Notes under the pieces: generated by a model
Told to the model about the DNA's origin: nothing
Seen by the model: only the letters and a program-made list of their open reading frames with translations
Database searches by the model: none
Part shown: one piece after another, positions 19,477-50,238 of the stretch
How positions within the stretch are numbered: position 1 is the stretch's first letter
Layout: each line of letters begins with the position of its first letter
Position numbers and translations under genes: made by a program
Origin: a virus
Length of the DNA: 64,000 nucleotides
Strand: one strand, 5' to 3'
IMG/VR virus record: IMGVR_UViG_3300025617_000006

Positions 19477-19821
19477 ATGGACGAGAAACTATCTAAAGCC
19501 CTAGAGTTTGGAAACTATTCTGCAACTCTCGATAATCAAAAGCGTATGCTACACGAAAAATTTGTAACTGATACGCTTTACTTTGTATCAGGCGGACAAT
19601 TTACTATCAATAAAGAACTTATTAACTATTGCCAGACATTAGTTAGTAATGACCAATCCACTGTAATTCTATTAGACGATAACGGTATTCCTATTGAGAT
19701 ATCTGATGTACAAGAGTTTCAAACAGAAATTCTCGATAAGCATTTTACAGCACTAAATGAATTGTATACTGAATACAAAAAATTAGAGAAAAGCAGGTCA
19801 GTTGACGGTTTAGTTGAATGA
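19477..19821 (+). CDS. Hypothetical protein (first gene of the glycosyltransferase operon)
   Basis: 114-aa ORF, ATGA-coupled to the next gene. Confidence 0.7.
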   Translation: MDEKLSKALEFGNYSATLDNQKRMLHEKFVTDTLYFVSGGQFTINKELINYCQTLVSNDQSTVILLDDNGIPIEISDVQEFQTEILDKHFTALNELYTEYKKLEKSRSVDGLVE

Positions 19822-20654
19822 CAAACGGTGTACTATTATTTGCATATAACAACGAACAAATAGATTATGTTGCGCAAGCATGTTATCTATCAAATCGTAT
19901 TTTGCAGTATATGGGATTACCAACTACATTAGTTACTGATGATGTAGCAAGGGTTAGAGAACACTATAACGGTGATGAAATTTTTGATAATATTATTGAA
20001 GTTTCGTCTGAACTTCATAACAAGAAACGATATAATGACGGTGCGTTGTCTGAAAAGGTTTTAGATTTTAAAAACTTCAATAGAGACAATGCATATGCAG
20101 TGTCTCCTTACGACAACACTCTTGTATTAGACACTGATTATATTATATCTAACGATATGTTATTAAATTGTTTCAATAGTAAACACGATTTAATGATGTA
20201 TACGAGTAGTAATGATATTTCAGGCTGGAGAGATACTAGTGAATTTAGTTTAATAAGCGAAACAAGTATTAAGTTTTATTGGGCAACATGTGTATTTTTT
20301 AAGAAGACCGAATCAAATAAAATTTTCTTTAATCTAATTACACACATTAAAGAAAATTATGAACATTATCGAAATCTTTATCAGATAACAACCAAAGTTT
20401 TTAGAAATGATTTTGCATTTAGTATTGCAGTTCATATTATGTCAGGGTATACTGATAATTTTGTTGCAGAATTACCAGGTAATATGATTTACAGTACATC
20501 AAAGGATATATTAGAAAATATTAAAGATAATGAATTAACATTTCTTGTTGAAAAAGAAAATAGAGTAGGAGAATATACTTTATTAAAATCAACAGGCTTA
20601 AATGTACATGTTATGAATAAGTTTAGTTTAGGAAGGAAAATAGCCAATGCCTAA
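19818..20654 (+). CDS. GT-A fold glycosyltransferase-like protein (GT8-like)
   Basis: SPYDNTLVLDTD (DxD) motif; paralog of the next gene. Confidence 0.65.
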   Translation: MTNGVLLFAYNNEQIDYVAQACYLSNRILQYMGLPTTLVTDDVARVREHYNGDEIFDNIIEVSSELHNKKRYNDGALSEKVLDFKNFNRDNAYAVSPYDNTLVLDTDYIISNDMLLNCFNSKHDLMMYTSSNDISGWRDTSEFSLISETSIKFYWATCVFFKKTESNKIFFNLITHIKENYEHYRNLYQITTKVFRNDFAFSIAVHIMSGYTDNFVAELPGNMIYSTSKDILENIKDNELTFLVEKENRVGEYTLLKSTGLNVHVMNKFSLGRKIANA

Positions 20655-21468
20655 CTTTACATTTCTTGCACAAAATAATGAAGACAATTATGTACGTCAG
20701 GCAGAGTTATTAGCCAAGAGTATACGGTTAACAAACCCTAATAGTAAGATTTGTTTAATCACTAATGACAACGTAGAACATAAAGAGTTATTTGATGACA
20801 TTGTACCTATACCATGGGAAGATAAAGCAGACGAACATAAATGGAAAGTGCAAAACAGATGGAAAATTTATCACGCATGTCCATATGAAAACACATTTGT
20901 ATTAGATACTGATATGTTAGTAATGCATGATTTAACATACTGGTGGAAATTAATGCAAAATTATGAAGTGTTTTATACAACTAATGTTACAGATTATAAA
21001 CAATGTAAACCCGATGTAACATATTATAGAAAAATGTTTATTGAAAATAAATTACCTAATACATATGTAGCATTACATTATTTTAAGAAGTCAGATTTTG
21101 CAAAAGAATTTTATACTTGCTTGGAAGAAGTAATGAAACATTGGGAATACTATTATAAAAAATATGCTCCCAAGCGTATGCAAAAATTTTTAAGTGTTGA
21201 TGTTTGTACAGCAATTGTTATGCGTGTATTAGATGTAGAACACAAAGTAACTAATGCAGTAGCACCGTTTCCTAATTTTGTGCATATGAAACCGTATGCA
21301 CAAACATGGAAAACGCAAACAGAAAAATGGCAAGACAGGATTACTTGCTTTGTAGACGATAACAACCAACTAAAGGTAGGCGGCTATTTACAAAAAACAG
21401 TATTTCATTATACTGAAAAGGATTTTACAGATAAATTTTACAATAGATTTTTTAAGGAAGAACAATGA
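20647..21468 (+). CDS. GT-A fold glycosyltransferase-like protein (GT8-like)
   Basis: CPYENTFVLDTDML (DxD), late FVHMK His motif. Confidence 0.65.
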   Translation: MPNFTFLAQNNEDNYVRQAELLAKSIRLTNPNSKICLITNDNVEHKELFDDIVPIPWEDKADEHKWKVQNRWKIYHACPYENTFVLDTDMLVMHDLTYWWKLMQNYEVFYTTNVTDYKQCKPDVTYYRKMFIENKLPNTYVALHYFKKSDFAKEFYTCLEEVMKHWEYYYKKYAPKRMQKFLSVDVCTAIVMRVLDVEHKVTNAVAPFPNFVHMKPYAQTWKTQTEKWQDRITCFVDDNNQLKVGGYLQKTVFHYTEKDFTDKFYNRFFKEEQ

Positions 21469-22037
21469 AGTATTGGACAGAAGTTCCATTAGAGGCCGAC
21501 GCAACGTATGTAGACTTTGATTTGGATACAGGGATTGTTAAAACTATAGGATCTCAAAAAACTTCAGAACATAGTATTCAAGTTGAGTACAATAGTGTAA
21601 AAGATTTGGTTGATGGTAAGGTGTATTTTAAACATTACCGTGTGCAATTTAATCCGACAACAACAATGTATGAACTTGTTAACAAACACGACGAATTATC
21701 GTTTCAGTATAATGTTAACCACAGTTTATATTGTGTACCTAAAACAAGTAAAGCAGACATAATGCTAGTTAAAGATTATAAAAGCCAAAAGTGGAAAATA
21801 AGATACGGCAATGTATTTTCAAAAACGCTAGAAGAAAACAGTGTTACACTACAGACGATCAAACATTTTAGTATAGCAAAGAAAAACGATCCTTATATAT
21901 TATATCGTACACTGAGTTTCAATTTAGCATCTCTAGACTTATGTATAGACTTTAATCACACTGATGCTATAACACTTGAATACGATGTATATACAAGTAA
22001 ACTTTTTAATAGTTATGGAGTAGTAGTAAATGATTAA
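21465..22037 (+). CDS. Hypothetical protein
   Basis: 190-aa ORF overlapping both neighbours, AAGGA SD. Confidence 0.65.
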   Translation: MKYWTEVPLEADATYVDFDLDTGIVKTIGSQKTSEHSIQVEYNSVKDLVDGKVYFKHYRVQFNPTTTMYELVNKHDELSFQYNVNHSLYCVPKTSKADIMLVKDYKSQKWKIRYGNVFSKTLEENSVTLQTIKHFSIAKKNDPYILYRTLSFNLASLDLCIDFNHTDAITLEYDVYTSKLFNSYGVVVND

Positions 22038-22911
22038 AGTCCAAGATGTTGATATAATCTTTTTAAGTTATGACGAACCTAATGCTGAAGAAAACTGGGC
22101 AGACTTAAAACGTAAAGTTCCGTGGGCCAAACGTGTACACGGTGTTGAAGGATCAGATGCGGCACATAAAGCATGTGCTGATTTGTCAGATACAAAACAT
22201 TTTGTTACAGTTGACGGCGATACTATTATTGATCCTAAATTTATTGAAGTTGTTGTAGATACCGATGCTCTTGGAATTACAGACGATCATCAAATAAGTT
22301 GGTGTGGAAAAATTGATGTCAACGGATTAATGTATGGTAATGGCAGTTTAAAAATGTGGACTAAAGATTTTGTTAAAGATATGCGTACACACGAAAACAC
22401 TGATGGCAATGACGAAACAAGTATTGAATTTTGCTATTTCGACAATTACTATCAACTTAACGAAAACTATTCAACAAGTATTATAAGTGCAACTCCGCAA
22501 CAAGCATGGCGTGCTGGGTTCCGTGAAGGTGTTAAAATGTCGTTAGACAGGGGCGCACCAGTAGACGATTTAAATTCTCTATGGTGGCAAAACAAGCACA
22601 GACTTTACATTTGGCAAATGGTAGGATGTGATATTCCAAATGGCATTTGGGCAGTGTATGGTGCAAGGCTTGGTACTTACATGAATATGCTTAGTGATTG
22701 GGATCATACACAAACACGAGATTTTACATATCTAAATAGTTTATGGGAAGAACATAAAGATGTAAAAGTATCTGAAGAATGTAAGGAATTGGGTAAATTA
22801 TTAATTAATGAATTAGACTTACCAATTGCAGTTGTTCCGTTTGATAAATTACAAAGTGAATTTTTTAAGGAAGTATATATTAATAGCGATAGAGTAATTA
22901 GACGTAAATGA
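22030..22911 (+). CDS. GT-A fold glycosyltransferase-like protein
   Basis: IIFLSYDE start, FVTVDGD (DxD), AWRAGFREGVK; paralog of 29389..30081. Confidence 0.6.
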   Translation: MIKVQDVDIIFLSYDEPNAEENWADLKRKVPWAKRVHGVEGSDAAHKACADLSDTKHFVTVDGDTIIDPKFIEVVVDTDALGITDDHQISWCGKIDVNGLMYGNGSLKMWTKDFVKDMRTHENTDGNDETSIEFCYFDNYYQLNENYSTSIISATPQQAWRAGFREGVKMSLDRGAPVDDLNSLWWQNKHRLYIWQMVGCDIPNGIWAVYGARLGTYMNMLSDWDHTQTRDFTYLNSLWEEHKDVKVSEECKELGKLLINELDLPIAVVPFDKLQSEFFKEVYINSDRVIRRK

Positions 22912-24272
22912 GCGAAGTAGATCGAATAAAAGAAATCATGCCGGAGATTGATGCTATTAGTCCAACATTCTGTCTGGCTAAATGGCATCATGTTACTATC
23001 TATTTGCAAACAGGAGAAACACACAGTTGTTATCATCCTGCACCGCATAAAATTCCACTTGAAGGATTGAGTAGTAATCCGAGCCAACTACATAATACTC
23101 CGCAGAAGAAGCAAGAGCGTAAGCAAATGCTAGCCGGTGAAAAGCCAAATGGCTGTCAGTATTGTTGGAATATTGAATGCATGGGCAAAGACTATGTAAG
23201 TGATAGACATATTAAAACAGCAAGTATTCATACACCTGAGCGCATAGAGGAAATTAAAAGTAATCCTTGGGACTATAATATTAATCCGGAATATATCGAA
23301 GTAAATTTTAGTAATGAATGCAACTTTAAATGTGGATATTGTCATCCGAAGTTTAGTAGTAGGTATTTTAACGAAATTAAAAAACATGGTCCGTATAGTA
23401 ATAGTACAGCCCATCGAAACGATATTGATTATTTTGAATTGTTTGAAGAAGATAGTAACCCATATGTCGAAGCATGGTGGAACTGGTGGCCTGACGTAAG
23501 TAAAACTCTTAATATTTTACGAGTTACCGGCGGCGAACCATTAATGCACAAAAGTACATGGAGGTTATTTGAAGAACTTAAACAAAATCCTAAACCCCAT
23601 CTTAATATTGAACTGAATAGTAACATGGGTGTAAAACCAGCACTAGTAGAAAAATTAACTCAAAAAGTTAAAGAGTTACGCGAAGCGAACTGCATTGCTA
23701 GTTTTAAATTATATACTAGCATCGATACTTGGGGAGAACGTGCTGAGTACACTCGCACAGGTTTGGATATTAAGTTATGGGAAAGTAATTTAGATTATTA
23801 TCTTTCTAATACCCCGTGGCCTGTAACATTTATGGTTACATATAACTTATTTGCGGTTACTAGTTTTAAAATGTTATTAGAAAAGATTCTCGAATGGCGC
23901 AAAAAATATAATAACGACAACCAGTCTAAGTGGCAACGTATCCGATTTGATACACCTTACTTAACTGAGCCGATTCAATTTGATATGAACATTCTACCTA
24001 AGGACTTTGCAGTGCATTTAGAAAGCCAATTAGAATATATTAAATCCAACCTTGACAATGCTGACCGTAATAAGTTTAGTGATTTAGAATATGAGCGTTT
24101 GCGCAGGGTTGTTGATTATTTTAAAAATACAGAGTATGATGTAAAAAAATTAACAAACGGACGTAAAAACTTTTATACTTGGTTTAGCGAATATGACAAG
24201 CGCAGGAACACTAGCCTTGTAAAAACATTTCCTGAATTAGAACAGTTTTATAAAACTTGCTCATTATTATAA
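22908..24272 (+). CDS. Radical SAM protein with N-terminal Twitch/SPASM-like Cys cluster
   Basis: CNFKCGYC, TGGEP, N-terminal C...SCYH...CQYC. Confidence 0.9.
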   Translation: MSEVDRIKEIMPEIDAISPTFCLAKWHHVTIYLQTGETHSCYHPAPHKIPLEGLSSNPSQLHNTPQKKQERKQMLAGEKPNGCQYCWNIECMGKDYVSDRHIKTASIHTPERIEEIKSNPWDYNINPEYIEVNFSNECNFKCGYCHPKFSSRYFNEIKKHGPYSNSTAHRNDIDYFELFEEDSNPYVEAWWNWWPDVSKTLNILRVTGGEPLMHKSTWRLFEELKQNPKPHLNIELNSNMGVKPALVEKLTQKVKELREANCIASFKLYTSIDTWGERAEYTRTGLDIKLWESNLDYYLSNTPWPVTFMVTYNLFAVTSFKMLLEKILEWRKKYNNDNQSKWQRIRFDTPYLTEPIQFDMNILPKDFAVHLESQLEYIKSNLDNADRNKFSDLEYERLRRVVDYFKNTEYDVKKLTNGRKNFYTWFSEYDKRRNTSLVKTFPELEQFYKTCSLL

Positions 24273-25273
24273 ATTTTTAAAGCAAGTTTTTGATTATGCA
24301 ATAATACATCGTTCATATCATTAAGAATAATTTTAAGTTCTTCAATGCTATTAGATTTAATATCATCTAATAGATTATAGATTTTTTGTAGTCTGTTGTT
24401 ATGATCTATTTCAATATCATAACTTTCATCAAACCATTTTTCAAATGTTTTAAAACCTAACTTTCGTATGTACTCGAGTGTACTCGGAGGCGCAACACAT
24501 ATAAACGGTCTTTTGTGTATCATTGCATTAACAGTCTTTTCGCTAAAATTTCCTGTTGGTTGATAAAAGCGAGTTTCGTTTGCTATTACACAAAAACTAT
24601 CCTGATAAAACTTTGACAAACTACTAGGTCCTTTTAGTTTTGCATCAGGCCATTTTTTATAAGTTGAATTGGTTGCTTCTAAATCTAAATCAATTGTTAA
24701 TGGCGGGTCGCTAAATGCCCAACTGTAGTAACCGGGTATATCTTTAATATAATTAATTAATGATTCTCTATGTAAACTATAACGCCAGTTTGGGCAGATA
24801 AAATATTTACTAATATTATTATTAATCATCCTAGCACCACCGTTGAATTGATTTCTTAGAAAAATATCAAAACATTTTAATTCAAACGGATACTCTAAAT
24901 AGGTTTTAACATTATAATCGCAAGTGTATACAGTGATATTACAATTTAAGTTTTGTGCAAATTTTGCAATAGAATCTAATTCTTCTGCACGTAAAAATTC
25001 GCCGCCTTTGAATTCGCTAAAGAAGTCTCTGTTATGCGGTTTTCCGTCTTCGTATAATGTTAATGGTTCGTACAGATAGATATCTAATGTTTTTAATTTT
25101 TTAGTAAGTTTGTGGGTTATCGGAAACTTACTAAAATCTATTTTATTTGTACCTGTATAAATCATATAAGGATTAGTTGGTTTCCACTGTTTAAAAAGAT
25201 CTTTAAACATATTACTAGACTTTGGTTTGATTTTACAAGGCATATTCCCCCAAAAAAGATCTTGGGTAAACAT
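24248..25273 (-). CDS. Putative glycosyltransferase-like protein (GT10-like C-terminal motif)
   Basis: FCVIANET...FSEKTVNAMIHKRPF...LGFKTF...DESYD resembles the E-x(n)-(T/S)EK nucleotide-sugar motif of fucosyltransferase-like proteins. Confidence 0.45.
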   Translation of the reverse strand: MFTQDLFWGNMPCKIKPKSSNMFKDLFKQWKPTNPYMIYTGTNKIDFSKFPITHKLTKKLKTLDIYLYEPLTLYEDGKPHNRDFFSEFKGGEFLRAEELDSIAKFAQNLNCNITVYTCDYNVKTYLEYPFELKCFDIFLRNQFNGGARMINNNISKYFICPNWRYSLHRESLINYIKDIPGYYSWAFSDPPLTIDLDLEATNSTYKKWPDAKLKGPSSLSKFYQDSFCVIANETRFYQPTGNFSEKTVNAMIHKRPFICVAPPSTLEYIRKLGFKTFEKWFDESYDIEIDHNNRLQKIYNLLDDIKSNSIEELKIILNDMNDVLLHNQKLALKIYNNEQVL

Positions 25274-25767
25274 TAGAACAATGTGCCTGTTATTTGCAGT
25301 GTATATCTAGGATCAATACCAATGTTACTTGCGGCATGCGGTACGTCAGGATGCCATAATACATACTCTCCTGCTACATAATCTGTAACAGCACGACCAC
25401 CAACTTCGAAGTAGTGTCCTGGCTTCCAGTCTTCTAAAAAAACAATTGCTCGTCTAACATCTTTACGTTGTTGTTTAAACACTCGGCAGTATGTATTAAA
25501 GTGATCAACATGGGTTGGCATAATATCAAGAGTATCCATTCGATAGATTACAAATCCTGTATTATGTAAATTGATCATTTCTGCAACTTTGCTAACCCAG
25601 TCTGGCATTACGTTTCGACTGTCGTACATTTTACCTGTAGTAGTTTCGTGCGTATACCCTTGCTCTCGCCAAGTGTCTGCTTCTTTACCTGTAATAGGTT
25701 GTCTTGTATAATCAAAGTTTTTAAAATCGTCGTTCCATATTTTAGGAACAGTACCTTTATACCACAT
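25273..25767 (-). CDS. 2OG-Fe(II) oxygenase (AspH-like)
   Basis: HVD...PHAASN...PRYTLQ (HxD-H-R). Start placed at ATG 25767; 25779 is possible. Confidence 0.75.
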   Translation of the reverse strand: MWYKGTVPKIWNDDFKNFDYTRQPITGKEADTWREQGYTHETTTGKMYDSRNVMPDWVSKVAEMINLHNTGFVIYRMDTLDIMPTHVDHFNTYCRVFKQQRKDVRRAIVFLEDWKPGHYFEVGGRAVTDYVAGEYVLWHPDVPHAASNIGIDPRYTLQITGTLF

Positions 25768-27336: not shown

Positions 27337-27341
27337 ATAGT

Positions 27342-42943: not shown

Positions 42944-42944
42944 C

Positions 42945-44411
42945 ATGAAAGACTGGAACAGCATATCCGTAGACCGGTATTATGAATCTTTAAAAGTTGA
43001 TACTAGTGTAGGCATTGGCATTTTAGATATTAGCCGAGACATCAACAGCGACTTAGTTAGTAAACGTTCGTTTGATATGACATATTTTTATATCAACCGA
43101 ATGGTTAAAATGAAACTAGTTAGTTACATTGGACGCAGTACAACAGTTAAAGAACTTTTACAAAATGCAATAGATTCTGGTAAACAGTATTGCATGATCG
43201 CATGTCAGGGATTGTTGTTATACAGAGGTCCTAGTCTAGTAATGAAAAGTTTAAAATATGCAGAAACTAACAAAGATTTTTTTGTAGTTGGACATATTAT
43301 GGATAAGAAGAATCAACATTACATTACTAAAGGTGCATATCCTGGATTACATAGACAATATCTTTTTGTAAATTTAAAAACATGGACCGATCTTGGGAAA
43401 CCTGAGTTTGACGAAATGGGAGTCTTTTGGGACCGAAAGCCGCAACTTCAAAACTATACTATGAGCGAGGATACTGTCCATAGCAATTATACTCCTGCCT
43501 ATATTGATAGTGCCGACGGAACAAAAACATATGATACTACTAGTGACGGTTCTAATTGGATCGATGTTGCATTACGTAATAACATACGTATTGATAATTT
43601 AGACAACGATATGCGAGCATGTAAGGTATTCCTATATCCATATAGTGATACTAAAACGCTAGAAAAAGTTTGGTATGATAAGCAAAGCCCTTTAGTTGAT
43701 ACCTTATCTAATCAAGCACAGCGCAGTTGGATACGTAAGTTAGGATACCAAGAAGAAATTGAAAAGAATCGTGTGTATGCCTTTAACACTGAGACGTTAA
43801 GTAGTGAAGGAGTTCGCACCGGAAGCAATCAAGTTGATCATCTGTTTAGTGCGGCCGCAGGATTTAAACCACTTGCAATATTAAATGCAAATGGTTTTCA
43901 TGAAGGCACAACAGTACATTACTTTGATTGGTGTGAAGCAAGTTTAAATTATAAAAGACACTTGTTAGAAACATGGGACGGTTACGATTTAGATAAGTGG
44001 TTATTAGAACATGATTTAAAATATAATTTTAGTTCAACTTATCGAGGAAACTACAAACAGTTCTGGGACCAAGAAGTATCAGAACATGGCGGCCGCGAAG
44101 CATTTAAAAAGTTATGGGATCGATATAAAATACTACAACACGAGTTTTATGTTATCGACATTGTTAATGAAAGTGAAAAATTATTTGCTGAAATAAATGA
44201 GTACACTGGCACCAAAGTATTATGGACTACTAATATTTGGTCAAGTGAGATGCTTAATTGGAACGTGGATCCAGAAGCATTAGAACAATTATTTTTAAAA
44301 TTTGAAGAACAAGTACCAGACGATTTAGTATTATACGGTCACGACTATGTTGCATTAGATTTAAATGAGCGCATACGTAAAGGTACTAAACTAACACATT
44401 TGAGATACTAA
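42945..44411 (+). CDS. Two-domain hypothetical protein (possible GT-like N-terminus, Rossmann-like C-terminus)
   Basis: 488 aa from ATG 42945 (GAGG SD); C-terminal half resembles 34497..35177. Confidence 0.55.
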   Translation: MKDWNSISVDRYYESLKVDTSVGIGILDISRDINSDLVSKRSFDMTYFYINRMVKMKLVSYIGRSTTVKELLQNAIDSGKQYCMIACQGLLLYRGPSLVMKSLKYAETNKDFFVVGHIMDKKNQHYITKGAYPGLHRQYLFVNLKTWTDLGKPEFDEMGVFWDRKPQLQNYTMSEDTVHSNYTPAYIDSADGTKTYDTTSDGSNWIDVALRNNIRIDNLDNDMRACKVFLYPYSDTKTLEKVWYDKQSPLVDTLSNQAQRSWIRKLGYQEEIEKNRVYAFNTETLSSEGVRTGSNQVDHLFSAAAGFKPLAILNANGFHEGTTVHYFDWCEASLNYKRHLLETWDGYDLDKWLLEHDLKYNFSSTYRGNYKQFWDQEVSEHGGREAFKKLWDRYKILQHEFYVIDIVNESEKLFAEINEYTGTKVLWTTNIWSSEMLNWNVDPEALEQLFLKFEEQVPDDLVLYGHDYVALDLNERIRKGTKLTHLRY

Positions 44412-45058
44412 TGAAGCGATATATTGAAAAGCATGAACAAGTTGATTTAGGCTGGACAATAAAGCCTTGGTTTCCTGTTGACATTGGTAAATTACAAAAT
44501 TGGTATGCTACGCTTGAAAAAAATTACAATGATTGGAAATTTATTGTAGGTGAACAACAGCATGTATGGAAATTTCCTATTAGTGATCCTGAAGCAAAGA
44601 CAGGACACCGATTAATGGACGATACTGCATATTATACACTGTGCTGGAATAGCGATGACCCTGGACCTAAACCATTTGAGCAAGGATGTGCTAAAGACGA
44701 ATATAAAGATAATGATGATGACAATTTAAATCCTCGTAAATGTTTTGACGGGTATGCATTAGGCATCGTACAGAGACTTCCTGTTCGCAGTAAAAAGTGG
44801 TTAGTAACAATACATACTCCGGGCACAAAATTAATTACACATCAAGATTCACCTGATAAAATACGTGTTCATATTCCTATACACACTAATGCAGATAGTA
44901 ATTGGGTTATTGATGGCAAAGAATATCATATGGAACCAGGTTGGGCATATCTTGTTAACACAACAGTTCCACATAGTGTAGAGAATAAAGGCACTACAAA
45001 TAGAATTCACTTATACGGAAAAGTTTGGACAGACGATGTTAAAAGCCTACAGTTATAG
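44411..45058 (+). CDS. AspH-like 2OG-Fe(II) oxygenase
   Basis: THQD..RVHIPI..N, VPHSVEN, NRIHL. Confidence 0.85.
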   Translation: MKRYIEKHEQVDLGWTIKPWFPVDIGKLQNWYATLEKNYNDWKFIVGEQQHVWKFPISDPEAKTGHRLMDDTAYYTLCWNSDDPGPKPFEQGCAKDEYKDNDDDNLNPRKCFDGYALGIVQRLPVRSKKWLVTIHTPGTKLITHQDSPDKIRVHIPIHTNADSNWVIDGKEYHMEPGWAYLVNTTVPHSVENKGTTNRIHLYGKVWTDDVKSLQL

Positions 45059-45467
45059 CAAGAAAGACTTTGTATCTAAAATGCAAAAAGAAAACATTAC
45101 AGATACAACAGTTGAAGATACTAACGACTATTATATCTGTATTGATTCAACAGGCGGTCCTAACTCAGATCCATACTTTGAACAATTCCATCCTAATGTA
45201 TTGAACTTACATTTTGATGATGTCTCAGAAGATAAGGAAAACTGGGGCGAAGATATTAAAGCCTATTACAAAGCAGTTGCTCCAACACTTACACAGATTA
45301 CACATATAAAGCGTTTTGTAGATAGTGCAGTTGGTACAGTTCATATACATTGTGTAAAGGGCGAGTCTCGTAGTAAAGCAGTTGCAGATTATGTAAATAA
45401 TACTCGAATAGCACATGACAGTAAATATGCTTACGAGTTAATTAGGAATACATTAGATGAACTTTGA
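45036..45467 (+). CDS. Cys-based (PTP/dual-specificity-like) phosphatase
   Basis: IHCVKGESRS (HCX5R) P-loop, upstream FDD acid loop. Confidence 0.8.
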   Translation: MLKAYSYSKKDFVSKMQKENITDTTVEDTNDYYICIDSTGGPNSDPYFEQFHPNVLNLHFDDVSEDKENWGEDIKAYYKAVAPTLTQITHIKRFVDSAVGTVHIHCVKGESRSKAVADYVNNTRIAHDSKYAYELIRNTLDEL

Positions 45468-46014
45468 TATAAAAGAAATAGATATTAAATTTGACTATAG
45501 TGAATATAGAAATTATTACAATAATATTTGTGAAAATTATTCTCATCTTATGTTTACTAATAAACTAATAAAAGACACAGTAGAGTCTGACAAGCACAAT
45601 GTTTCTAAAGTTTACGGATTTGGACTGCAAAGCAATTTACAAGATTTAACAGTTCCGTGTCCCCCGTGGAATGTACACAAAGACGGCAGTGACGAATATA
45701 GAGATACTGAATTAGTATTTGGACCAATACTTAAACTAAAAGAATTATTTCCTAATTCAAGGCAGTATAGTATAAGTGGGCATCCGCCGGGTACGATGAT
45801 TCAACAGCATACTGATACTGACAAATATCTTAAAATACATTTGCCTATTTTAACTAATCCAGATGCTTGTTTTGTGTTCGGTGATAAAAAGTATTGTTTA
45901 AAAGTTGGAAAAGCATACTTAATAAATACTACTAGACTTCACGGAACAATCAATTCCGGAAATACCGATAGAGTACATTTATTTTTCAAAGTACCTGCAG
46001 AGGACTATCTATGA
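45457..46014 (+). CDS. AspH-like 2OG-Fe(II) oxygenase
   Basis: QHTD..KIHLPI.TN, LHGTIN, DRVHL. Confidence 0.85.
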   Translation: MNFDIKEIDIKFDYSEYRNYYNNICENYSHLMFTNKLIKDTVESDKHNVSKVYGFGLQSNLQDLTVPCPPWNVHKDGSDEYRDTELVFGPILKLKELFPNSRQYSISGHPPGTMIQQHTDTDKYLKIHLPILTNPDACFVFGDKKYCLKVGKAYLINTTRLHGTINSGNTDRVHLFFKVPAEDYL

Positions 46015-46730
46015 GATTGCTAAGACCCGAACACATTAAAGATGTTAGTATTCTATTTGATAACCTTGATTGGGATATAGTCGAACTAGACTTTACAATT
46101 GATGCATCTGCATTAAATGATTATTATAACAAATTAAAAACTGACTTGTATGGATTTAATTTTAGTTTTGATTCTAAAGAATATCTACGTCCAGACATCT
46201 ACGAAACATATAAAACACAAGGCAGTGTTGGGAATTACTTAGGTAATATCCAAGGATGGAGTATAAGTTGGCCAGTTAATCGAGATATTCCATGTCCATC
46301 AAAGTCACAAGCAAATCTTAATATGTATCCTGAATTGAAAGATTTATCAGAACAAGACTTCTATAAATCCTTGCCACAAGATCATTATAAGTTTGGAATA
46401 CTAAATTCGCTAATTGATAGACTAAGTTTATCGGCACTACGACAGATGTTAATGGCATTGCATCCAAGTGGGTTAGTAGTTAATACTCATACTGATGGCG
46501 AAGTTAAAAAATTGCACATTCCATTTTATACAAACACCGATGCAGTTTTTACTTTTGGTGAAAACAGAGAGCGTACATATCATATGGAATTGGGCAAAGC
46601 CTATATAATTAACACACTAGTTCCACATGGAACTGAAAACACCGGATCATCTGAACGTGTCCACTTGTTGTCTAGAGTAGACAATGAGTTTATGCAGTCA
46701 CTTCTTGATCTTAAATGCCATATTTCATGA
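46011..46730 (+). CDS. AspH-like 2OG-Fe(II) oxygenase
   Basis: THTD..KLHIPF.TN, VPHGTEN, ERVHL. Confidence 0.85.
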   Translation: MRLLRPEHIKDVSILFDNLDWDIVELDFTIDASALNDYYNKLKTDLYGFNFSFDSKEYLRPDIYETYKTQGSVGNYLGNIQGWSISWPVNRDIPCPSKSQANLNMYPELKDLSEQDFYKSLPQDHYKFGILNSLIDRLSLSALRQMLMALHPSGLVVNTHTDGEVKKLHIPFYTNTDAVFTFGENRERTYHMELGKAYIINTLVPHGTENTGSSERVHLLSRVDNEFMQSLLDLKCHIS

Positions 46731-46736
46731 TAAATA
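46731..46736 (+). promoter_or_regulatory. Late-type promoter TAAATA
   Basis: GATAAATA, then AGGAG SD and ATG 46756. Confidence 0.55.
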
Positions 46737-46755
46737 TAAGCAACAGGAGACAACA

Positions 46756-48000
46756 ATGAGCAACACTTATTTTACACAAGTTTTGGATGAACCGTTCCAC
46801 TTAGGAAACGGTGAGTTCTTATCAGTAATTACTAACGGAAAAGCACGCCATGAAGGCGAAGAAACAAGAGATTTTAACAAAGACGCAGGCGCAAGAGCAG
46901 GATTACTTAGAGTAAATGCTGACAGTGCTACGTTTGTAGACTTTTATGATAAAAGCGATAACGGTGATAGATACCGAGGTGTTGCAGTTGTAGGTAATAC
47001 AGCATATGTAATGCGTACACAAAAAGACAAAGTAGACAGTGTTATTAGAGTAGCGGCTGTAAACTTAGATACTAACGAAGTTACAATGATTGAAGAAAAG
47101 GGTGTAACAGTACACGGCTCAGAAACTCCTAAAACATTCTGTGGACACTTTAACTTTGGTCGCCCAATTACAGTTGGTACTAAAATTGTTTATCCACCAA
47201 TTATGAGTGGAATGATTATTGTGTTTGATACTGTTGCTAATACATTTACTGTACACGAAACAGAAGAAAAGTTTGCTTCTATTCATAGTGTGTATGTAGA
47301 AGATTTAAATGAAGTTGTATTTTTTCCATATGGTAAAACAACTAACAAGTTGTTAACTTTAGACATGGGAACAAATACAATTACTGCACATGAGGCTCCA
47401 ACTAACGGTGCTTTTTATCATGTCAATACAAACGGAACTAAAGCAGTTGGCGCTCCATTAATTATGGACGGTACTACAGAATTTAACTTCTGGGTATATG
47501 ACGGCGATACAGTTCAGTCAGTTGCTTATGATTCATCTAGCACAGATGACATGGGCGGACAAATGGGTTTCAAATACGGAACCATGAACGATAACACATT
47601 GTTAACACACACTTGTTGGGACGGATGTAAAGAGTTTGTAACCTTAAACCTAGATACACTTGCTATTGACCATTTTGCAACTAACGAATCATTAGGTAGT
47701 AAGCCTGTTGTTAACAACGGCGACATTTACTTGTTTCCATCAATCCAAAACCCAAGCATGGTAAATCCAACAACTAAAGTTTTTAAAGTTGAAGGAACTG
47801 CAATCAACGAAGTTATGGACTTGGGTACTGCAAATATTACTTCAGGATCGATTAACGATACTGATAGTGTTACAATGTTAGCACCTTACAAGTTTGATTT
47901 AGATAGCGATAATTTAAAAGGTTCACTTGCTATTGTTAATCTAAACGACAAAAATTCTAAATTAGTTCCAGTAGATTTATTACTAGAACCTAATGACTAA
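46756..48000 (+). CDS. Beta-propeller-like protein, possibly virion-associated
   Basis: Repeats IVYPP, VVFFPYG, AVGAP, IYLFPS with FDT/LD turns; T/N/D/G-rich; has its own late motif and SD. Confidence 0.5.
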   Translation: MSNTYFTQVLDEPFHLGNGEFLSVITNGKARHEGEETRDFNKDAGARAGLLRVNADSATFVDFYDKSDNGDRYRGVAVVGNTAYVMRTQKDKVDSVIRVAAVNLDTNEVTMIEEKGVTVHGSETPKTFCGHFNFGRPITVGTKIVYPPIMSGMIIVFDTVANTFTVHETEEKFASIHSVYVEDLNEVVFFPYGKTTNKLLTLDMGTNTITAHEAPTNGAFYHVNTNGTKAVGAPLIMDGTTEFNFWVYDGDTVQSVAYDSSSTDDMGGQMGFKYGTMNDNTLLTHTCWDGCKEFVTLNLDTLAIDHFATNESLGSKPVVNNGDIYLFPSIQNPSMVNPTTKVFKVEGTAINEVMDLGTANITSGSINDTDSVTMLAPYKFDLDSDNLKGSLAIVNLNDKNSKLVPVDLLLEPND

Positions 48001-49117
48001 CATCACAATAGTAGGCGGCGGAACAGCCGGTTGGATGACTGCCGCCTATCTCTCTGTAAAAACAGACTGGCAAATCACACTTATTCAAAGCCAAGATATT
48101 CCCATCATCGGTGTAGGTGAAAGTACACTTCCGAGTCTTTATGATTTTGTACAAGAGTGCGGACTTACAGAACAAGATTTATTTGAACACACAACAGCAG
48201 TTAGAAAATATACTATTAGACATCTAGACTGGAATAAAAATGGAGATTGGTATCATCATTTTTGTTTTAATGAGACTCAACACAATGAGCAATTGGACTG
48301 GATGAAAAATTACGAAAGACCAAATGAAAAATGGCGACACGCATATCACATAGATGCATTTAAGTTTGGTGCAATGTTGCGTGATAAGGTTGCTATACCA
48401 AATGGCGTTGTAGTAGAACAAAAAACAATAGACAGTATAGATGAAATAGAATCTGATCTAATTATAGACTGCACAGGATTTAACAAATTAACTAACCCTA
48501 CCAACTGGGTAGATAGTGCTTTGCCTAACAATAGTGCAGTAGTATGTCCAAGTAATCAAGTTATTAATAAACCTTATACACAAACAACAGCACTTAGTTC
48601 GGGGTGGATGTGGACTATAGCATTACAAACAAGAACAAGTAACGCATATGTGTTTAGTGACAAACACATCACATATGAACAAGCAAAAGAAGAATTTATA
48701 AAAAGGTGTCCGTATGAGTTAGACTTAGACAAACTTAGATACTTGTCTTGGCAAGGAGGATACACTACTACTCCATTCAGAGGAAACGTTTTAAATATAG
48801 GATTGAGTGCAGGATTCTTTGAACCATTAGAATCTCAGGCTATATGGGCAACACAATATCAAATAGAAATGCTTGTAAGACTAGGGTTGAATAAGCAGGC
48901 TGTTTATAATAAGCAATGGGTAACAATGATGAAACATATTGAAAGGTACCTGTTAGCACATTACACTGCAAGTTCTCGTAGAGATAATGACTACTGGAAA
49001 CAGTTTGATAATATTCTAATGGTAACTCCTGGCAATGAGAAGTTTAAGATTTTTGATGAGTACAGTTATCGTTGCCTAGCGAACGGTTACGCTCTTCCAT
49101 ATAGGTCAGCACATTAA
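47993..49117 (+). CDS. Tryptophan-halogenase family flavin-dependent enzyme (short)
   Basis: GGGTAGW, IGVGESTLP, AVRKYTI (position of the catalytic Lys), IDCTGF, WMWTI, GFFEPLES. Confidence 0.85.
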   Translation: MTNITIVGGGTAGWMTAAYLSVKTDWQITLIQSQDIPIIGVGESTLPSLYDFVQECGLTEQDLFEHTTAVRKYTIRHLDWNKNGDWYHHFCFNETQHNEQLDWMKNYERPNEKWRHAYHIDAFKFGAMLRDKVAIPNGVVVEQKTIDSIDEIESDLIIDCTGFNKLTNPTNWVDSALPNNSAVVCPSNQVINKPYTQTTALSSGWMWTIALQTRTSNAYVFSDKHITYEQAKEEFIKRCPYELDLDKLRYLSWQGGYTTTPFRGNVLNIGLSAGFFEPLESQAIWATQYQIEMLVRLGLNKQAVYNKQWVTMMKHIERYLLAHYTASSRRDNDYWKQFDNILMVTPGNEKFKIFDEYSYRCLANGYALPYRSAH

Positions 49118-49607
49118 TACGCCATAAGTTTTGTGGAACATTGTACAGTTCCATTTGTCTATCAAGTTCCCATATACCACGTTTTGCTAATAACGGCATC
49201 ATGGTATTATTCATACGTTGACTTTTGCCGCCATCATCATTTATGTTTGTGCTTATGTATAAGTCTGCATTTAGATTCTTTTCTATCGCCCAACTAATTT
49301 GTAAATCTAATAGATAACTTAATTGTATTCCTGTCTTAAAGATATCTCTACCAGTACCTAAGGTGTATCCTGAAAGTTGCGCACCTCTAAACAAACATCT
49401 ATAAGCGTGTTCAGATACTTCTGGTAAAGGATGTATTCCAGCAATGCTAATAATTTTATCATCTTCTATAGCAATAGTCCAAGCACCTACATCTAAACAC
49501 CACTGCCATTTCATTTTGTCAAGTGAAGTATTGTTACTAAAATTTTGAGAGTTACAAAATTGTTCTACTAATGATTGATCATCTGTTGTAGCAAATCTAA
49601 AATTCAT
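49044..49607 (-). CDS. Putative GNAT-like acyltransferase
   Basis: MNFRFATTDD start and WTIAIEDDKIISIAGIH strand pattern; directly follows the adenylation gene. Confidence 0.4.
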   Translation of the reverse strand: MNFRFATTDDQSLVEQFCNSQNFSNNTSLDKMKWQWCLDVGAWTIAIEDDKIISIAGIHPLPEVSEHAYRCLFRGAQLSGYTLGTGRDIFKTGIQLSYLLDLQISWAIEKNLNADLYISTNINDDGGKSQRMNNTMMPLLAKRGIWELDRQMELYNVPQNLWRINVLTYMEERNRSLGNDNCTHQKS

Positions 49608-50238
49608 TTTTCCACGTAGATCCGGTTGCTGTTTTTAAGCGATGTGAAAACGTCATAGTGTCAACATCAAATATATCTCCAGTAGGATGCCCGTCTATAA
49701 TACATTCGCCTTCTTTACTAAATGATACATTGTCGTTAATCTTAGTAAAGTTTGGTGTGTTGTAACCAATCATAACAGGCGGAGGCACTTCAGTCATACC
49801 GTACCAGTTTGCTACTGTTTGTACTCCACGCTCTTTAAATGCATCAATAAATGATTGCTCAATTTTATTAGATCCAGTAACCATATAACGCACACTACTC
49901 ATGTCCAATTTATCAAACCCTTTTGTTTTTTGTAGTAATTCTAAATGGCGTGGAATTAACGCTATATACGTCGGTTTAACGCTATTAAACAGTGTAGGGT
50001 AGGTAAGTGCATTAAAGACGCTACAAACGTGCTGTGCGCCGCTTAAATACGCCGGAAAAGCGGTTATAGTGAAGTGTGCTATAGTATTTGCTGGAAATAC
50101 GTCTAATACAATGTCTTGCTTAGTTAAACCAATTTCTGCAACAGAACGACTAGCGCACTGTTGCAGATATTCCCAAGTGTGGGTAACTTTTTTTGGTTCA
50201 TCAGTTGAACCTGATGTGAATAGCGTAAGGGTGCTCAT
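49597..50238 (-). CDS. Minimal AMP-binding (ANL adenylation) enzyme
   Basis: FTSGSTDEPK (A3), YGMTE (A5), TGD (A7); only 213 aa. Confidence 0.8.
   Translation of the reverse strand: MSTLTLFTSGSTDEPKKVTHTWEYLQQCASRSVAEIGLTKQDIVLDVFPANTIAHFTITAFPAYLSGAQHVCSVFNALTYPTLFNSVKPTYIALIPRHLELLQKTKGFDKLDMSSVRYMVTGSNKIEQSFIDAFKERGVQTVANWYGMTEVPPPVMIGYNTPNFTKINDNVSFSKEGECIIDGHPTGDIFDVDTMTFSHRLKTATGSTWKNEF

Follow-up and report, generated by a model that had tools for sequence, protein, structure and literature searches.

A hypervariable island of soluble, putative tailoring enzymes between convergent tail-fibre genes of an uncultured marine giant phage

Introduction

The glycosylation of mycobacteriophage virions (Freeman 2023, as cited in PMC12619734) provides a precedent for phage-encoded decoration of the virus particle, and a second precedent is found in the proposals that tail-collar proteins are hydroxylated and then further modified (PMC2938197). 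In pelagimyophages, a fibre-containing hypervariable island with cassettes of GT8, Ugd and radical SAM (rSAM) genes has been described, and was read as a system for host-envelope alteration (PMC7029224). Here we analysed a window of 64,000 nt, the whole stretch under study (IMG/VR record IMGVR_UViG_3300025617_000006), which comes from an abundant uncultured marine giant phage. The lineage is one of widespread aquatic jumbo myophages, with Agrobacterium phage Atu_ph07 and Sinorhizobium phage Phosso as distant relatives. A first-pass annotation had proposed that the window holds a ~30-kb island of modifying enzymes; the island stands in outline, with its layout, fibre flanks and most of the enzyme families, but several of the enzyme calls are motif-level or weak.

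Results

Layout and flanking genes

The island consists of 37 abutting ORFs at 19477-50238 (~30 kb; the first-pass count was about 35), arranged in six strand blocks (ORF by ORF, ++++++----++++++++++++-----++++++++--), and all its junctions are overlaps or gaps of at most 35 nt. Intergenic DNA across the entire 64-kb window amounts to 1495 nt. Three independent assemblies carry the identical island, indicating that it is real. A motif check found intact catalytic motifs throughout the island enzymes, and a membrane-like segment was found in none of the 37 proteins, indicating that they are soluble. The description of the genes as nearly all modifying enzymes was too strong, because about one third of the ORFs fit no enzyme family; among these are three propeller-like proteins and the products of 19477, 21465, 33923 and 34497 (genes are named by their lower coordinate). 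Fibre genes on both flanks, as first proposed, are confirmed by profile matches and paralogy: the left border is formed by three paralogous fibre genes and the right border by an Mtd_N fibre gene.

133-12228, +, giant structural protein (>4031 aa), left context; tblastn to 4.4-4.5-kaa structural proteins of Atu_ph07 and Phosso
12249-12863, +, small baseplate-type protein, lineage marker; phrog_11259, E 3e-75
12868-14937, 14937-17036 and 17070-18548, +, three paralogous tail-fibre genes; blastp paralogy, PHROG tail fibre / tail collar matches
18559-19452, +, 297-aa protein, acidic and rich in Ser/Thr, in one transcription unit with the fibres
50271-51551, -, right-flank fibre protein with Mtd_N domain; PF18454, E 3e-11

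The three left fibre paralogues share an N-terminal domain of ~300 aa by blastp. The baseplate-type marker is 54-57% identical to its Phosso and Atu_ph07 counterparts, and more than 600 IMG/VR stretches carry a homologue. Family searches with 18559 gave no match; all five island-bearing long contigs contain a member of its family, as do 59 of 80 baseplate-centred loci, and 12 of 12 island-less loci lack one. It thus tracks the presence of the island, and may be a candidate acceptor or adaptor.

Promoter signals

The motif TAA[AG]TA is enriched about 5-fold in intergenic DNA, where 12 of its 107 matches lie within the 1495 bases, and it stands at the head of five of the six units and of several fibre genes, in good agreement with the earlier view that most units start at this motif. 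The reported lack of a consensus sigma70 promoter was likewise confirmed: a well-placed site was not found within the island, and two nearby genes of early type, 54468 and 59468, are preceded by perfect 12/12 sites. Judging from these motifs, the promoter layout would fit late expression of the island.

Sugar enzymes and transferase folds

19818-20654 and 20647-21468, +, two paralogous GT8-like (glycogenin-like) GT-A proteins; profile and paralogy
22030-22911, +, GT-A-fold protein, paralogue of 29389; blastp E 4e-20
24248-27306, -, four-gene unit made up of the next four entries
24248-25273, -, 341-aa protein, GT10-like motif only
25273-25779, -, small cupin 2OG oxygenase; HxD...H
25757-26725, -, StrB1-like amidinotransferase; E 5e-62, full length, GGGFHC motif
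26722-27306, -, short DegT aminotransferase, 194 aa; E 4e-18
27342-28559, +, NDP-sugar 6-dehydrogenase, Ugd family; Pfam UDPG_MGDP_dh domains
28493-29401, +, 302-aa protein, SGNH-like motifs only
29389-30081, +, core GT-A-fold (GT2-like) protein; AF2 model, Foldseek

The family profile of 19818 and 20647 matches glycogenin GT8 (E 1.3e-4) across the DxD motif, and DxD is invariant in the family alignment of 22030. For the AF2 model of 29389 (pLDDT 90.6) the best Foldseek matches all have the GT-A / nucleotide-diphospho-sugar-transferase fold, with Z 11.3 to B4GALNT1 and 10.6 to ThuS and a tie with IspD and MobA. We describe 29389 as a predicted GT-A-fold protein, a fold that ties with nucleotidyltransferases in Z; the GT-A assignments in general are putative and draw on fold and a weak profile match. 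A Photorhabdus homologue of 29389 lies between a GT1 gene and two GT2 genes. From the earlier list of four GT-A proteins and one GT10-like protein, two GT8-like and two GT-A-fold proteins were thus retained, with a further GT-A-like domain in 42906 (below), but GT10 is a motif-level call, searches with 24248 giving no family match. The SGNH-like motifs of 28493 were read from the sequence, and Pfam and further profile searches gave no family match. The Ugd protein scores E 3e-47 against TIGR03026, under the cut-off of that model, and the short (194-aa) form of DegT is conserved. Three genes of the minus unit are shared with cyanophage S-SCSM2R, with identities of 54% for DegT, 66% for the amidinotransferase and 27% for the cupin oxygenase.

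Radical SAM enzymes

22908-24272, +, N-terminal-twitch rSAM (NF033640); 312.8 bits, CNFKCGYC
30059-31036, +, short rSAM, core, weakly STM4011/viperin-like
31622-32635, +, rSAM with C-terminal SPASM, core
32604-33932, +, N-terminal-twitch rSAM (NF033640), core; 416 bits
36452-37357, +, short rSAM, paralogue of 30059
37337-38422, -, NF033640 rSAM, last gene of minus unit 37337-42221
41166-42221, -, NF033640 rSAM, first gene of the same unit

All seven rSAM enzymes that had been claimed are intact, are matched by Pfam and carry CX3CX2C, and four exceed the cut-off of NCBIfam NF033640 (N-terminal twitch; 170 bits). The homologue of 30059 in a Bdellovibrionia cassette is 49-53% identical, and 32604, for which 4869 homologues were counted, is 46-50% identical to its Bdellovibrionia version. 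An NF033640 rSAM of Methylomagnum is located inside a glycosyltransferase cluster with an ABC transporter.

Oxygenases, halogenase and adenylation enzyme

35168-35812 and 35799-36455, +, two AspH-like 2OG oxygenases; PF05118, paralogy
42239-42943, +, AspH-like hydroxylase overlapping 42906; PF05118, E 1e-14
42906-44411, +, 501-aa protein with N-terminal GT-A-like domain; AF2 pLDDT 82.7
44411-46730, +, region with three AspH-like oxygenases (44411, 45457, 46011); PF05118
47993-49117, +, truncated Trp-halogenase-family enzyme, flavin-dependent; PF04820, E 1e-73
49597-50238, -, mini adenylation enzyme, 213 aa; AMP-binding E 1e-21, profile positions 168-331 only

Pfam AspH (PF05118) matched five genes, 35168, 42239, 44411, 45457 and 46011, and 35799 was added by paralogy; HxD...H is present in these six and in the small cupin 25273, which makes up the seven oxygenases as a small cupin form. 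The GT-A-like domain of 42906 gave Z 8.5-9.3 to Manic Fringe, COLGALT1, the LH3 GT domain and PBCV-1 A64R, its best Z scores being to protein-glycosylating enzymes; 42906 shows no conserved DXD. Genes 42239 and 42906 are adjacent in 20 of 20 relatives. The halogenase aligns with PyrH (E 8e-46) at the Lys, GWMWTI and FEPLES, with ~90 C-terminal residues missing. The earlier calls of Ugd, DegT, amidinotransferase, halogenase and adenylation enzyme were each confirmed, with the reduced forms listed above.

Weakly assigned genes

19477-19821, +, 114-aa protein, first gene after a TAAATA motif
21465-22037, +, 190-aa protein
31033-31644, +, 203-aa conserved core protein, putative methyltransferase
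33923-35177, +, two ORFs of 193 aa and 226 aa (33923, 34497)
38391-39527 and 39520-40755, -, two propeller-like repeat proteins; weak Kelch/LRR/Reg_prop leads
40724-41179, -, small kinase-like protein; weak, E 0.01-0.04
45036-45467, +, small Cys-phosphatase-like protein; DSPc E 0.006 and HCX5R motif
46684-48000, +, propeller-like repeat protein; weak paralogy to 38391
49044-50238, -, unit in which a 187-aa protein, putatively GNAT-like, lies downstream of the adenylation enzyme

The methyltransferase, SGNH, GNAT, kinase and phosphatase calls are motif-level or weak matches. The core protein 31033 was found in 41 of 42 loci, and a PDB sequence search gave no match; profile searches with 21465 gave none either. 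No counterpart of 33923 or 34497 was found in any relative examined, and both are thus unique to this phage. The likeness of 33923 to the fibre protein 50271 was not significant (E 0.32). Gene callers place the start of 46684 at ~46756, giving 414 aa. Gene order in the minus unit 37337-42221 (rSAM, kinase-like, two repeat proteins, rSAM) is kept in relatives, and the pair of adenylation enzyme and 187-aa protein recurs beside the right fibre gene in ~10 relatives.

The slot in relatives

The synteny expected by the first-pass annotation was observed: in relatives the island always follows the fibre genes, with varying content and a size that ranges from 0 (12 island-less loci) through ~10 kb in Phosso and Atu_ph07 up to ~50 kb with 15 rSAM genes. 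In the island-less relatives the 50271-type right fibre gene converges straight onto the left fibre genes, and the existence of these relatives indicates that fibres assemble without the island. In five long relatives all PF04055 and PF05118 matches lie 10-61 kb behind the baseplate and fibre genes, with none elsewhere; in two mega-islands 28 of the 109 ORFs encode rSAM enzymes. Modules are reshuffled beside the right-hand fibre gene, and core gene order and translational coupling are kept in ~40 loci. What this phage carries is one version of a dispensable, hypervariable accessory slot between convergent tail-fibre genes; exchangeable soluble-enzyme modules surround a conserved core that comprises two GT-A-fold transferases and several rSAM enzymes. 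The core cassette (two GT-A and three rSAM genes) was also found in Bdellovibrionia chromosomes with no fibre genes nearby, and S-SCSM2R carries a DegT-oxygenase-amidinotransferase module and a halogenase in a non-structural region away from the fibres; both weaken a strict fibre link.

Discussion

The most likely product of the island is a decoration of sugar type, which its enzymes would build and edit and which may be destined for the virus particle. As the best explanation we tentatively propose a late, cytoplasmic system of glycan and hydroxyl tailoring, probably for virion proteins. The units would be transcribed late from T4-late-like TAA(A/G)TA promoters. By family chemistry, Ugd, the short DegT, the small oxygenase and the StrB1-like amidinotransferase would yield an oxidised, aminated and amidinated sugar donor, from which the GT8-like and GT-A-fold proteins, whose fold is supported, may place sugars on a cytoplasmic acceptor. 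By analogy, the AspH-like hydroxylases would make hydroxyl acceptor sites on protein side chains, and GT-A-like 42906, the partner of 42239, would then use these hydroxyls, as in collagen hydroxylysine glycosylation. The rSAM enzymes are putative editors of sugar or acceptor, with C-methylation, epimerisation, dehydration and cross-linking among the conceivable reactions. The acceptor would most probably be a virion surface protein made concurrently, the fibres and the co-occurring 18559 family being candidates. The glycan-type chemistry anticipated earlier is supported by the GT8-like and GT-A-fold proteins, Ugd, DegT and amidinotransferase and by bacterial homologues among glycosyltransferases; this and the synteny partly support the first interpretation, but its strict fibre linkage is weakened by the Bdellovibrionia and S-SCSM2R examples. 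In bacteria the GT-A and rSAM genes are inherited together in a single compact cassette, an argument for a common pathway.

The same sugar families could instead serve to remodel the host envelope, altering O-chain or capsule and thereby blocking superinfection or re-adsorption of progeny to debris, as was suggested for the pelagimyophage cluster (PMC7029224). The GT8-like, Ugd and DegT families are of a kind typical for LPS and the Methylomagnum rSAM sits among glycosyltransferases and an ABC transporter, but Pfam and the membrane-segment scan found among the 37 ORFs no membrane protein, polyprenyl-phosphate transferase, flippase, polymerase or ligase, so that all envelope steps would need host enzymes; a late-looking promoter layout would leave little time for surface turnover, and no part in O-chain synthesis is obvious for AspH-type hydroxylases, for the halogenase or for the kinase/phosphatase pair. 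We consider this unlikely. Also unlikely is a maturation of proteins only, in the style of RiPP tailoring, by the rSAM and AspH core with kinase, phosphatase and halogenase, the sugar genes being a separate add-on; it might leave cross-links, epimerised or hydroxylated residues or halogenated Trp on fibres or on the island propeller-like proteins. SPASM/twitch rSAMs weakly match many peptide maturases, PF05118 enzymes hydroxylate proteins or peptides, the halogenase has no free-Trp binding module and its weaker NCBIfam matches are the protein-Trp modifiers QhpG and LodB, kinase-like 40724 weakly resembles lanthipeptide kinases, and a conserved operon holds two propeller-like proteins flanked by rSAM genes. 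Against it, no precursor-peptide gene was found in the island, nor is there room for one with so little intergenic DNA in the window; Pfam found no RRE-type domain, the bacterial cassette carries GT-A and rSAM genes co-inherited together, and the Methylomagnum example belongs to a glycan cluster.

A free metabolite acting on host or competitors, such as a guanidino amino-sugar, an aminocyclitol-like compound or a halogenated and hydroxylated amino-acid derivative, is distinctly unlikely: neither a scaffold-forming enzyme (NRPS, PKS, inosose or cyclitol synthase) nor an exporter was found in the island by Pfam and membrane scan, modules are gained and lost independently, unlike a fixed pathway, and lineage-wide strict fibre linkage is unexpected for a metabolite cluster. 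In its favour, StrB1-type amidinotransferase, DegT and the kinase-like and phosphatase-like proteins recall streptidine logic, adenylation enzyme and halogenase are both encoded, the core cassette is autonomous in Bdellovibrionia, Iyer et al. (PMC2938197) proposed secondary-metabolite roles for cyanophage dioxygenase/halogenase arrays, and the S-SCSM2R authors (PMC12801897) named the shared module 'antibiotic synthesis genes'. The highly variable content, the island-less relatives and the presence of the same modules at other positions in unrelated phages could also mean that the slot is a permissive recombination site gathering auxiliary genes of no common function; the strongly non-random families (rSAM, 28 of 109 ORFs in the mega-islands), the core order and coupling kept in ~40 loci and the cassette conserved in bacteria make this very unlikely. 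That the enzymes add sugars or amino-acid-derived groups to the bases of phage DNA is highly improbable. Thymidine hypermodification does employ phage glycosyltransferases, rSAM and PLP enzymes, kinases and acetyltransferases (PMC8989533), and virus glycosyltransferases hypermodify DNA (Pyle 2024, as cited in PMC12619734), but profile searches of the island gave no match to 5-HMUDK, aGPT-Pplase or any base hydroxymethylase family, DNA hypermodification pathways are not known to include AspH-type or halogenase families, and the island is placed in the structural module with a late-type promoter layout.

If the tailoring of virion proteins is true, every phage variant would own a distinct surface chemistry. 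Among published concepts, the closest to this island is the host recognition cluster of pelagimyophages.

Position of the island in a jumbo phage lineage

The left part of the window carries the genes by which the phage lineage can be recognized, and the enzyme island lies between two sets of fibre genes (ORFs are named by their left coordinate):

1-18548: ORF open at its 5' end and longer than 4000 codons, small baseplate-type protein (12249-12863), and three paralogous fibre genes (12868, 14937 and 17070)
19477-50238: enzyme island
50271: Mtd_N fibre gene on the right flank

Among cultured phages, the closest relatives of these genes are in Phosso (Sinorhizobium) and Atu_ph07 (Agrobacterium), with 54-57% identity for the baseplate-type protein, followed by those of Rak2-like and PA5oct-like jumbo phages, and a search for near-identical DNA among cultured phages gave no match for the window. 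The baseplate marker was found on more than 600 IMG/VR stretches, and a single island enzyme gave 4869 homologues, with contigs of up to 379 kb; the lineage is thus very common in aquatic metagenomes. The island itself is present on hundreds of aquatic contigs belonging to this lineage, and accounts for 10-15% of a genome of ~300 kb or more. Assemblies made independently from two ENA samples and one JGI sample gave this phage with the same order of genes, which shows that the island did not arise in assembly. Baseplate, fibre and island genes of the lineage were also detected on many 'MAG' contigs filed under Bifidobacterium, Neomarinimicrobiota, Rickettsiales, Pacearchaeota, Fischerella and others; these are probably phage sequences that were binned with bacteria or archaea.

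The corresponding slot of Phosso and Atu_ph07 is organized in the order giant protein, baseplate protein, fibre, enzyme block, and then the homologues of 51944 and 52542. The enzyme block is 8-11 kb in size and includes 3-4 radical SAM genes, but at E 1e-4 BLAST shows no similarity between its proteins and those of the island, and AspH, halogenase and amidinotransferase annotations are missing there. Within the lineage, a core gene order is kept in ~40 IMG/VR loci at 50-90% identity, with modules added or missing.

Core gene order of the island
29389: GT-A-fold protein
30059: radical SAM enzyme
31033: 203-aa core protein
31622: radical SAM enzyme
32604: radical SAM enzyme
35799: AspH-like oxygenase
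36452: radical SAM enzyme
37337: radical SAM enzyme
between 37337 and 40724: two propeller-like proteins
40724: kinase-like protein
41166 (minus): radical SAM enzyme
42239: AspH-like oxygenase
42906: 501-aa protein overlapping 42239

In the ~40 loci compared, 33923 and 34497 were found only in this phage. An assignment of 33923 as a fibre-tip domain was unsupported (BLASTP E 0.32 to fibre 50271, and no phage match). All the radical SAM (4 to 15 per contig) and AspH matches on five long contigs are located 10-61 kb behind the baseplate gene, and none elsewhere. The two largest islands together contain 109 ORFs, among which Pfam identified 28 radical SAM, 8 SPASM, 5 AspH and 3 other 2OG oxygenases, together with 2 NDP-sugar epimerase/dehydratases, Ugd, an amidinotransferase-type protein and methyltransferases. 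At the other end of the size range, 12 relatives lack the island, and in these the left fibre genes and the 50271-type fibre gene are convergent direct neighbours. The island thus varies from 0 to ~50 kb, and its modules are shuffled: the position next to the 50271-type gene is occupied by the adenylation enzyme, 49044 and the halogenase in ~10 relatives, by a StrB1-like gene in ~5, and by 42906/42239 in others. The family of 18559, an acidic Ser/Thr-rich protein of 297 aa encoded between the left fibres and the island, is present in all the island-bearing long contigs and missing from island-less loci.

Transcription units and promoter motifs

The island consists of 37 ORFs in six strand blocks, in which each junction is overlapping or has a gap of 35 nt at most. 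The sequence TAA[AG]TA is rarer than expected overall, and 12 of its 107 matches fall within the 1495 intergenic bases; it is placed 5-15 nt upstream of the first ATG in five of the six island units, and also before fibre genes. At 19466-19476, 27312-27341 and 50244-50264 the motif ends 5-12 nt short of the ATG with no Shine-Dalgarno sequence between. If the motifs act as -10-like late promoters, each unit would begin with a gene translated from leaderless or nearly leaderless mRNA.

The set of sigma70 sites, scanned as TTGACA-N16-18-TATAAT, is different from that of TAA(A/G)TA. Perfect 12/12 sites at 54468 and 59468 lie 40-67 nt upstream of early-type genes (minus strand; 54468-54428 and 59468-59401), and 11/12 sites were found at 62339 and 63798 (minus strand). 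Perfect or near-perfect TTGACA-N17-TATAAT sites thus stand 16-67 nt upstream of replication/nucleotide-type genes, in contrast to the TAA(A/G)TA of the structural and island units. The first-pass annotation had reported no consensus sigma70 promoter inside the island, in agreement with our scan, which gave only two 11/12 matches there, both intragenic and ~170-200 nt from the next start. Late expression of the island is plausible from this arrangement of motifs.

The G+C content falls to 0.296 at 20001-22000, over the GT8-like genes, against 0.33-0.39 in the rest of the window. Two start sites are uncertain: that of 41166-42221 (minus), with the ATG taken by metagenome gene callers (346 aa) or TTG (351 aa), and that of 46684-48000, where the gene callers begin at ~46756 (414 aa). 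Outside the island, 53130-54428 (minus) is 'HNH endonuclease' in PHROGs, but its precomputed Pfam assignment is DUF2201_N plus DUF2201 (VWA-like); it adjoins a MoxR/CobS-like AAA ATPase, and the pair (within 53130-55616, minus) looks like an ATPase plus VWA-partner module rather than a nuclease.

Radical SAM enzymes

Seven radical SAM enzymes are encoded in the island, all with CX3CX2C, including one with a C-terminal SPASM domain and two short forms. The remaining four passed the curated cut-off (170 bits) of NCBIfam NF033640 (N_Twi_rSAM), with scores of 312.8 (22908), 416.3 (32604), 227.5 (37337) and 226.9 (41166) bits. In these NF033640-type enzymes CX3CX2C is located at residues 106-146 and is preceded by an N-terminal auxiliary Cys cluster, and the Pfam SPASM match is N-terminal in 32604, 37337 and 41166. 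In the island the family is expanded to 4 copies, and relatives carry up to ~15 radical SAM genes.

None of 14 control genomes carried an NF033640 protein above the cut-off. One plasmid-borne gene was found in Methylomagnum, among GT39, GT2 and GT4 genes, an ABC transporter, a methyltransferase and a phytanoyl-CoA dioxygenase; a homologue search found no relatives of this protein. No characterised member of the family was found in the literature, nor anything specific on NF033640, on twitch-domain radical SAM enzymes in phages or on radical SAM enzymes of marine jumbo phages. The 'Moraphage' paper (PMC12619734), considered as a match, deals with another lineage and says nothing of radical SAM. 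A marine T4-like genome with 12 radical SAM genes was noted in 2017 (PMC5332604). One related long IMG/VR contig carries an A-type Fe-S cluster carrier (PF01521) at 20278-20583, in line with the remark that marine phage genomes rich in radical SAM genes carry Fe-S assembly genes; none of this type was found in four other related long contigs, all incomplete.

Glycosyltransferase-fold proteins

For the paired genes 19818 and 20647, a profile of 19 sequences matched glycogenin (GT8) with E 1.3e-4 via DxD (LDTD / LDAD), a match that spans only ~115 residues of the N-terminal nucleotide-binding half; Pfam GT8 (PF01501) gave no match. The structure model of 29389 (pLDDT 90.6) has the GT-A, or nucleotide-diphospho-sugar-transferase, fold, with B4GALNT1 (Z 11.3, rmsd 2.9, 135 residues aligned), ThuS/SunS and WrtF (also Z ~11) as structural neighbours, and D57 and D59 (DxD after strand 4) are invariant in the family of 29389 and its paralogue 22030. 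The nucleotidyltransferases IspD and MobA are tied with the transferases (Z 10-11), and it is the genomic context of a Photorhabdus homologue, among GT1 and GT2 genes, that favours a predicted transferase over a nucleotidyltransferase.

The 501-aa protein 42906, which the first-pass annotation had not reported, has a GT-A-like N-terminal domain by its model, with Z 8.5-9.3 to Manic Fringe, COLGALT1, the LH3 GT domain and PBCV-1 A64R. This assignment is borderline; no conserved DXD was seen in the family. The genes for the AspH-like 42239 and for 42906 overlap in all 20 relatives compared. A fusion of the two, raised by an ESM Atlas lead, was not present among the best 120 of 172 homologues. 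Searches of PDB with 29389 and 42906, by sequence or profile, gave nothing.

Oxygenases and other tailoring enzymes

The AspH-like oxygenases include five identified by PF05118 and one by paralogy, to which a small cupin oxygenase is added; HxD...H is present in all. Besides a Ugd-family dehydrogenase, the island encodes a StrB1-type amidinotransferase, missed by Pfam and NCBIfam and found with PDB sequences (E 5.4e-62 to 1BWD, residues 3-318), in which GGGFHC with the catalytic Cys is conserved. The cyclitol-forming companions of a streptidine-like pathway (inositol dehydrogenase, inosose synthase) were not found among the 37 ORFs.

Several of the enzymes are short. DegT proteins are normally ~360-400 aa. 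The DegT-family protein at 26722-27306 (minus) has 194 aa, and the possibility of a broken gene was rejected since cyanophage S-SCSM2R keeps a form of 195 aa, 54% identical, which indicates a conserved minimal form. The Trp-halogenase aligns with PyrH over GGGTAG (GxGxxG), VRKYTIR (its K, the catalytic Lys, on the K of GYKLGIR), GWMWTIA (Ala for Pro) and FEPLES with the conserved Glu, with a length of 374 aa against ~511 aa; the alignment stops at PyrH residue 418, an internal segment is ~60 aa shorter, and the C-terminal free-Trp binding module is absent. The adenylation enzyme at 49597-50238 (minus; 213 aa) is an AMP-binding core that starts at TSGSTxxPK and covers profile positions 168-331 of 384, without the N-terminal part and the C-terminal subdomain; it recurs in relatives together with its partner of 187 aa.

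Searches of PDB by sequence or profile gave no match for 31033, labelled methyltransferase, or for 24248, a 341-aa protein labelled GT10, and the propeller-like proteins gave weak LRR matches only. No confirmation was obtained for the GT10, methyltransferase, SGNH (28493) and GNAT (49044) labels of the first-pass annotation. The kinase and phosphatase labels of the first-pass annotation were retained as weak matches plus motifs, and its description of the genes as nearly all modifying enzymes was too strong: ~15 ORFs have no match in Pfam, NCBIfam and PHROGs, and about a third are dark.

Relatives outside the lineage

Counterparts of the short DegT (54% identity), the small oxygenase (27%) and the amidinotransferase (inosamine-type; 66%) are present in the T4-like cyanophage S-SCSM2R beside glycosyltransferases and a radical SAM gene, and this phage also carries a PrnA-type halogenase. 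When species-representative genomes were scanned with the 29389 family, many matches were on probable mis-binned phage contigs. A compact cassette of two GT-A proteins (22030-like and 29389-like) and three radical SAM enzymes was found in MAGs of Bdellovibrionia, Pseudobdellovibrionaceae and Bacteriovoracaceae, with identities to the island enzymes of 46-50% (NF033640), 35-40% (SPASM) and 49-53% (short). It was found on a 493.6-kb contig amid ordinary cellular genes (MoxR, DUF58, SppA, PHP, prolyl oligopeptidase). A five-gene Bdellovibrionia copy is located at ~143-150 kb of JAUICP010000004.1 (GCA_030427805.1).

In Photorhabdus (GCA_052950815.1, JBREXM010000008.1), a 29389 homologue is located between GT1 and two GT2 genes. 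The same operon (~1300-16300) also encodes a radical SAM-SPASM protein, a PcrB-like prenyltransferase, a NUDIX protein, an FAD enzyme, a rhomboid protein, a 67-aa ORF, a nucleotidyltransferase, and an ABC exporter with an HlyD-type protein; its product looks like an exported glycosylated one, possibly a glycosylated peptide. The bacterial and cyanophage contexts tie the GT-A-fold proteins and radical SAM enzymes to each other and to glycosyl transfer, and the cellular cassettes indicate that phage fibres are not needed for the core to work.

Possible roles of the island

No membrane-like segment was detected in any of the 37 island proteins, and no polyprenyl-phosphate transferase, flippase, polymerase, exporter or scaffold synthase was found among them, suggesting that the chemistry is cytoplasmic and takes place on something that the cell or the phage already provides. 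Our preferred reading, to which we give somewhat less than an even chance, is that the island is a late, modular glycan-and-hydroxyl tailoring system for virion surface proteins. This reading is favoured by the late-type promoters, the strict lineage-wide linkage to fibres and the way in which the 18559 family follows the presence of the island. It is also favoured by the hydroxylase-GT-A pair, reminiscent of the glycosylation of hydroxylysine in collagen, and by the co-inheritance of glycosyltransferase and radical SAM genes. Among the alternatives most weight goes to remodelling of the host O-chain, the published reading of the pelagimyophage host recognition cluster (HRC; PMC7029224), which we do not favour, as the island has no membrane-step enzyme.

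Protein-only maturation follows in weight. For a RiPP-type system an adjacent precursor-peptide gene was sought, and no free small ORF fits between the island genes with junctions overlapping or of 35 nt at most; the substrate may, though, be encoded by an overlapping or a distant gene. For RRE-type domains, which are divergent, there was no Pfam match among the island ORFs. Production of a free metabolite ranks below it, and agrees with the secondary-metabolite reading of the Syn9 tandem dioxygenases with Trp halogenases (Iyer et al. 2010, PMC2938197) and with the description of the S-SCSM2R cluster by its authors as cell-wall and 'antibiotic' genes (PMC12801897). Still less weight is given to a grab-bag of unrelated auxiliary genes, and the least to DNA hypermodification, against which 5-HMUDK kinase, aGPT-Pplase and base hydroxymethylase were not matched by Pfam or NCBIfam among the island ORFs.

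A more specific form of virion-protein tailoring, which we consider unlikely, is that NF033640-type radical SAM enzymes, GT-A transferases and AspH hydroxylases put a new class of modification on tail-fibre proteins, such as would be given by radical-edited, amidinated sugars on enzymatically hydroxylated side chains. If true, the hypervariable island would be a combinatorial generator of virion surface chemistry, tuning host range or shielding the particle, and this would be the first radical-SAM-dependent virion modification, giving a function to NF033640, common to the phage and predatory Bdellovibrionia. The five-gene cassette common with Bdellovibrionia offers a defined genetic context for testing this function, and the island is a source of compact, soluble and probably oxygen-tolerant variants of radical SAM enzymes, hydroxylases, halogenases and amidinotransferases.

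Comparison with known systems

The island resembles the glycosylation systems of mycobacteriophage capsids and tails, chloroviruses and Mimivirus in having soluble GT-A proteins and sugar-nucleotide enzymes beside structural genes. At the fold level only (Z 8.5-11), the neighbours of 29389 or 42906 include PBCV-1 A64R, Mimivirus R699 and the GT domains of LH3 and COLGALT1, and the pairing of hydroxylase and GT in 42239/42906 resembles LH3. The radical SAM component of the island has no counterpart in these virion-glycosylating viruses. If the product decorates the virion, abundant marine jumbo phages would join mycobacteriophages and giant eukaryotic viruses among those with glycosylated virions, and radical chemistry would be a further addition. 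The arrays of S-SCSM2R (ORF301-310) and of Syn9 type differ in lying among non-structural auxiliary genes, without NF033640 expansion.

The closest published system is the HRC of pelagimyophages and cyanomyophages, a large, non-syntenic and under-recruiting island inside the structural module, with tail-fibre genes, glycosyltransferases (GT8 the commonest), UDP-glucose dehydrogenase and radical SAM cassettes, in phages that have AspH as a core gene (Zaragoza-Solas et al. 2020, PMC7029224). Like the HRC, the island is hypervariable, non-syntenic and inside the structural module, with fibres on both sides and with GT8-like, GT-A-fold, Ugd and DegT proteins. In contrast to the 150-kb T4-like phages of the HRC, the phage here is a jumbo phage with an Atu_ph07/Phosso-type baseplate and giant protein and contigs of up to 379 kb; its island is positioned by a different set of flanking genes, which resemble those of Atu_ph07/Phosso and not of T4-like myophages, where the HRC is between VrlC and the neck gene gp14; and NF033640-type radical SAM and AspH expansions dominate in place of LPS-type transferases. 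For pelagimyophages and cyanomyophages, a hypervariable enzyme island linked to fibres, with GT8, Ugd, radical SAM cassettes and AspH, is already published (PMC7029224), and the window therefore adds detail and not a new category. The window contributes a jumbo lineage, sizes ranging from no island to a mega-island, a firm assignment for StrB1, a GT-A-like protein as partner of AspH, a halogenase in truncated form and a confirmation of the bacterial cassette.
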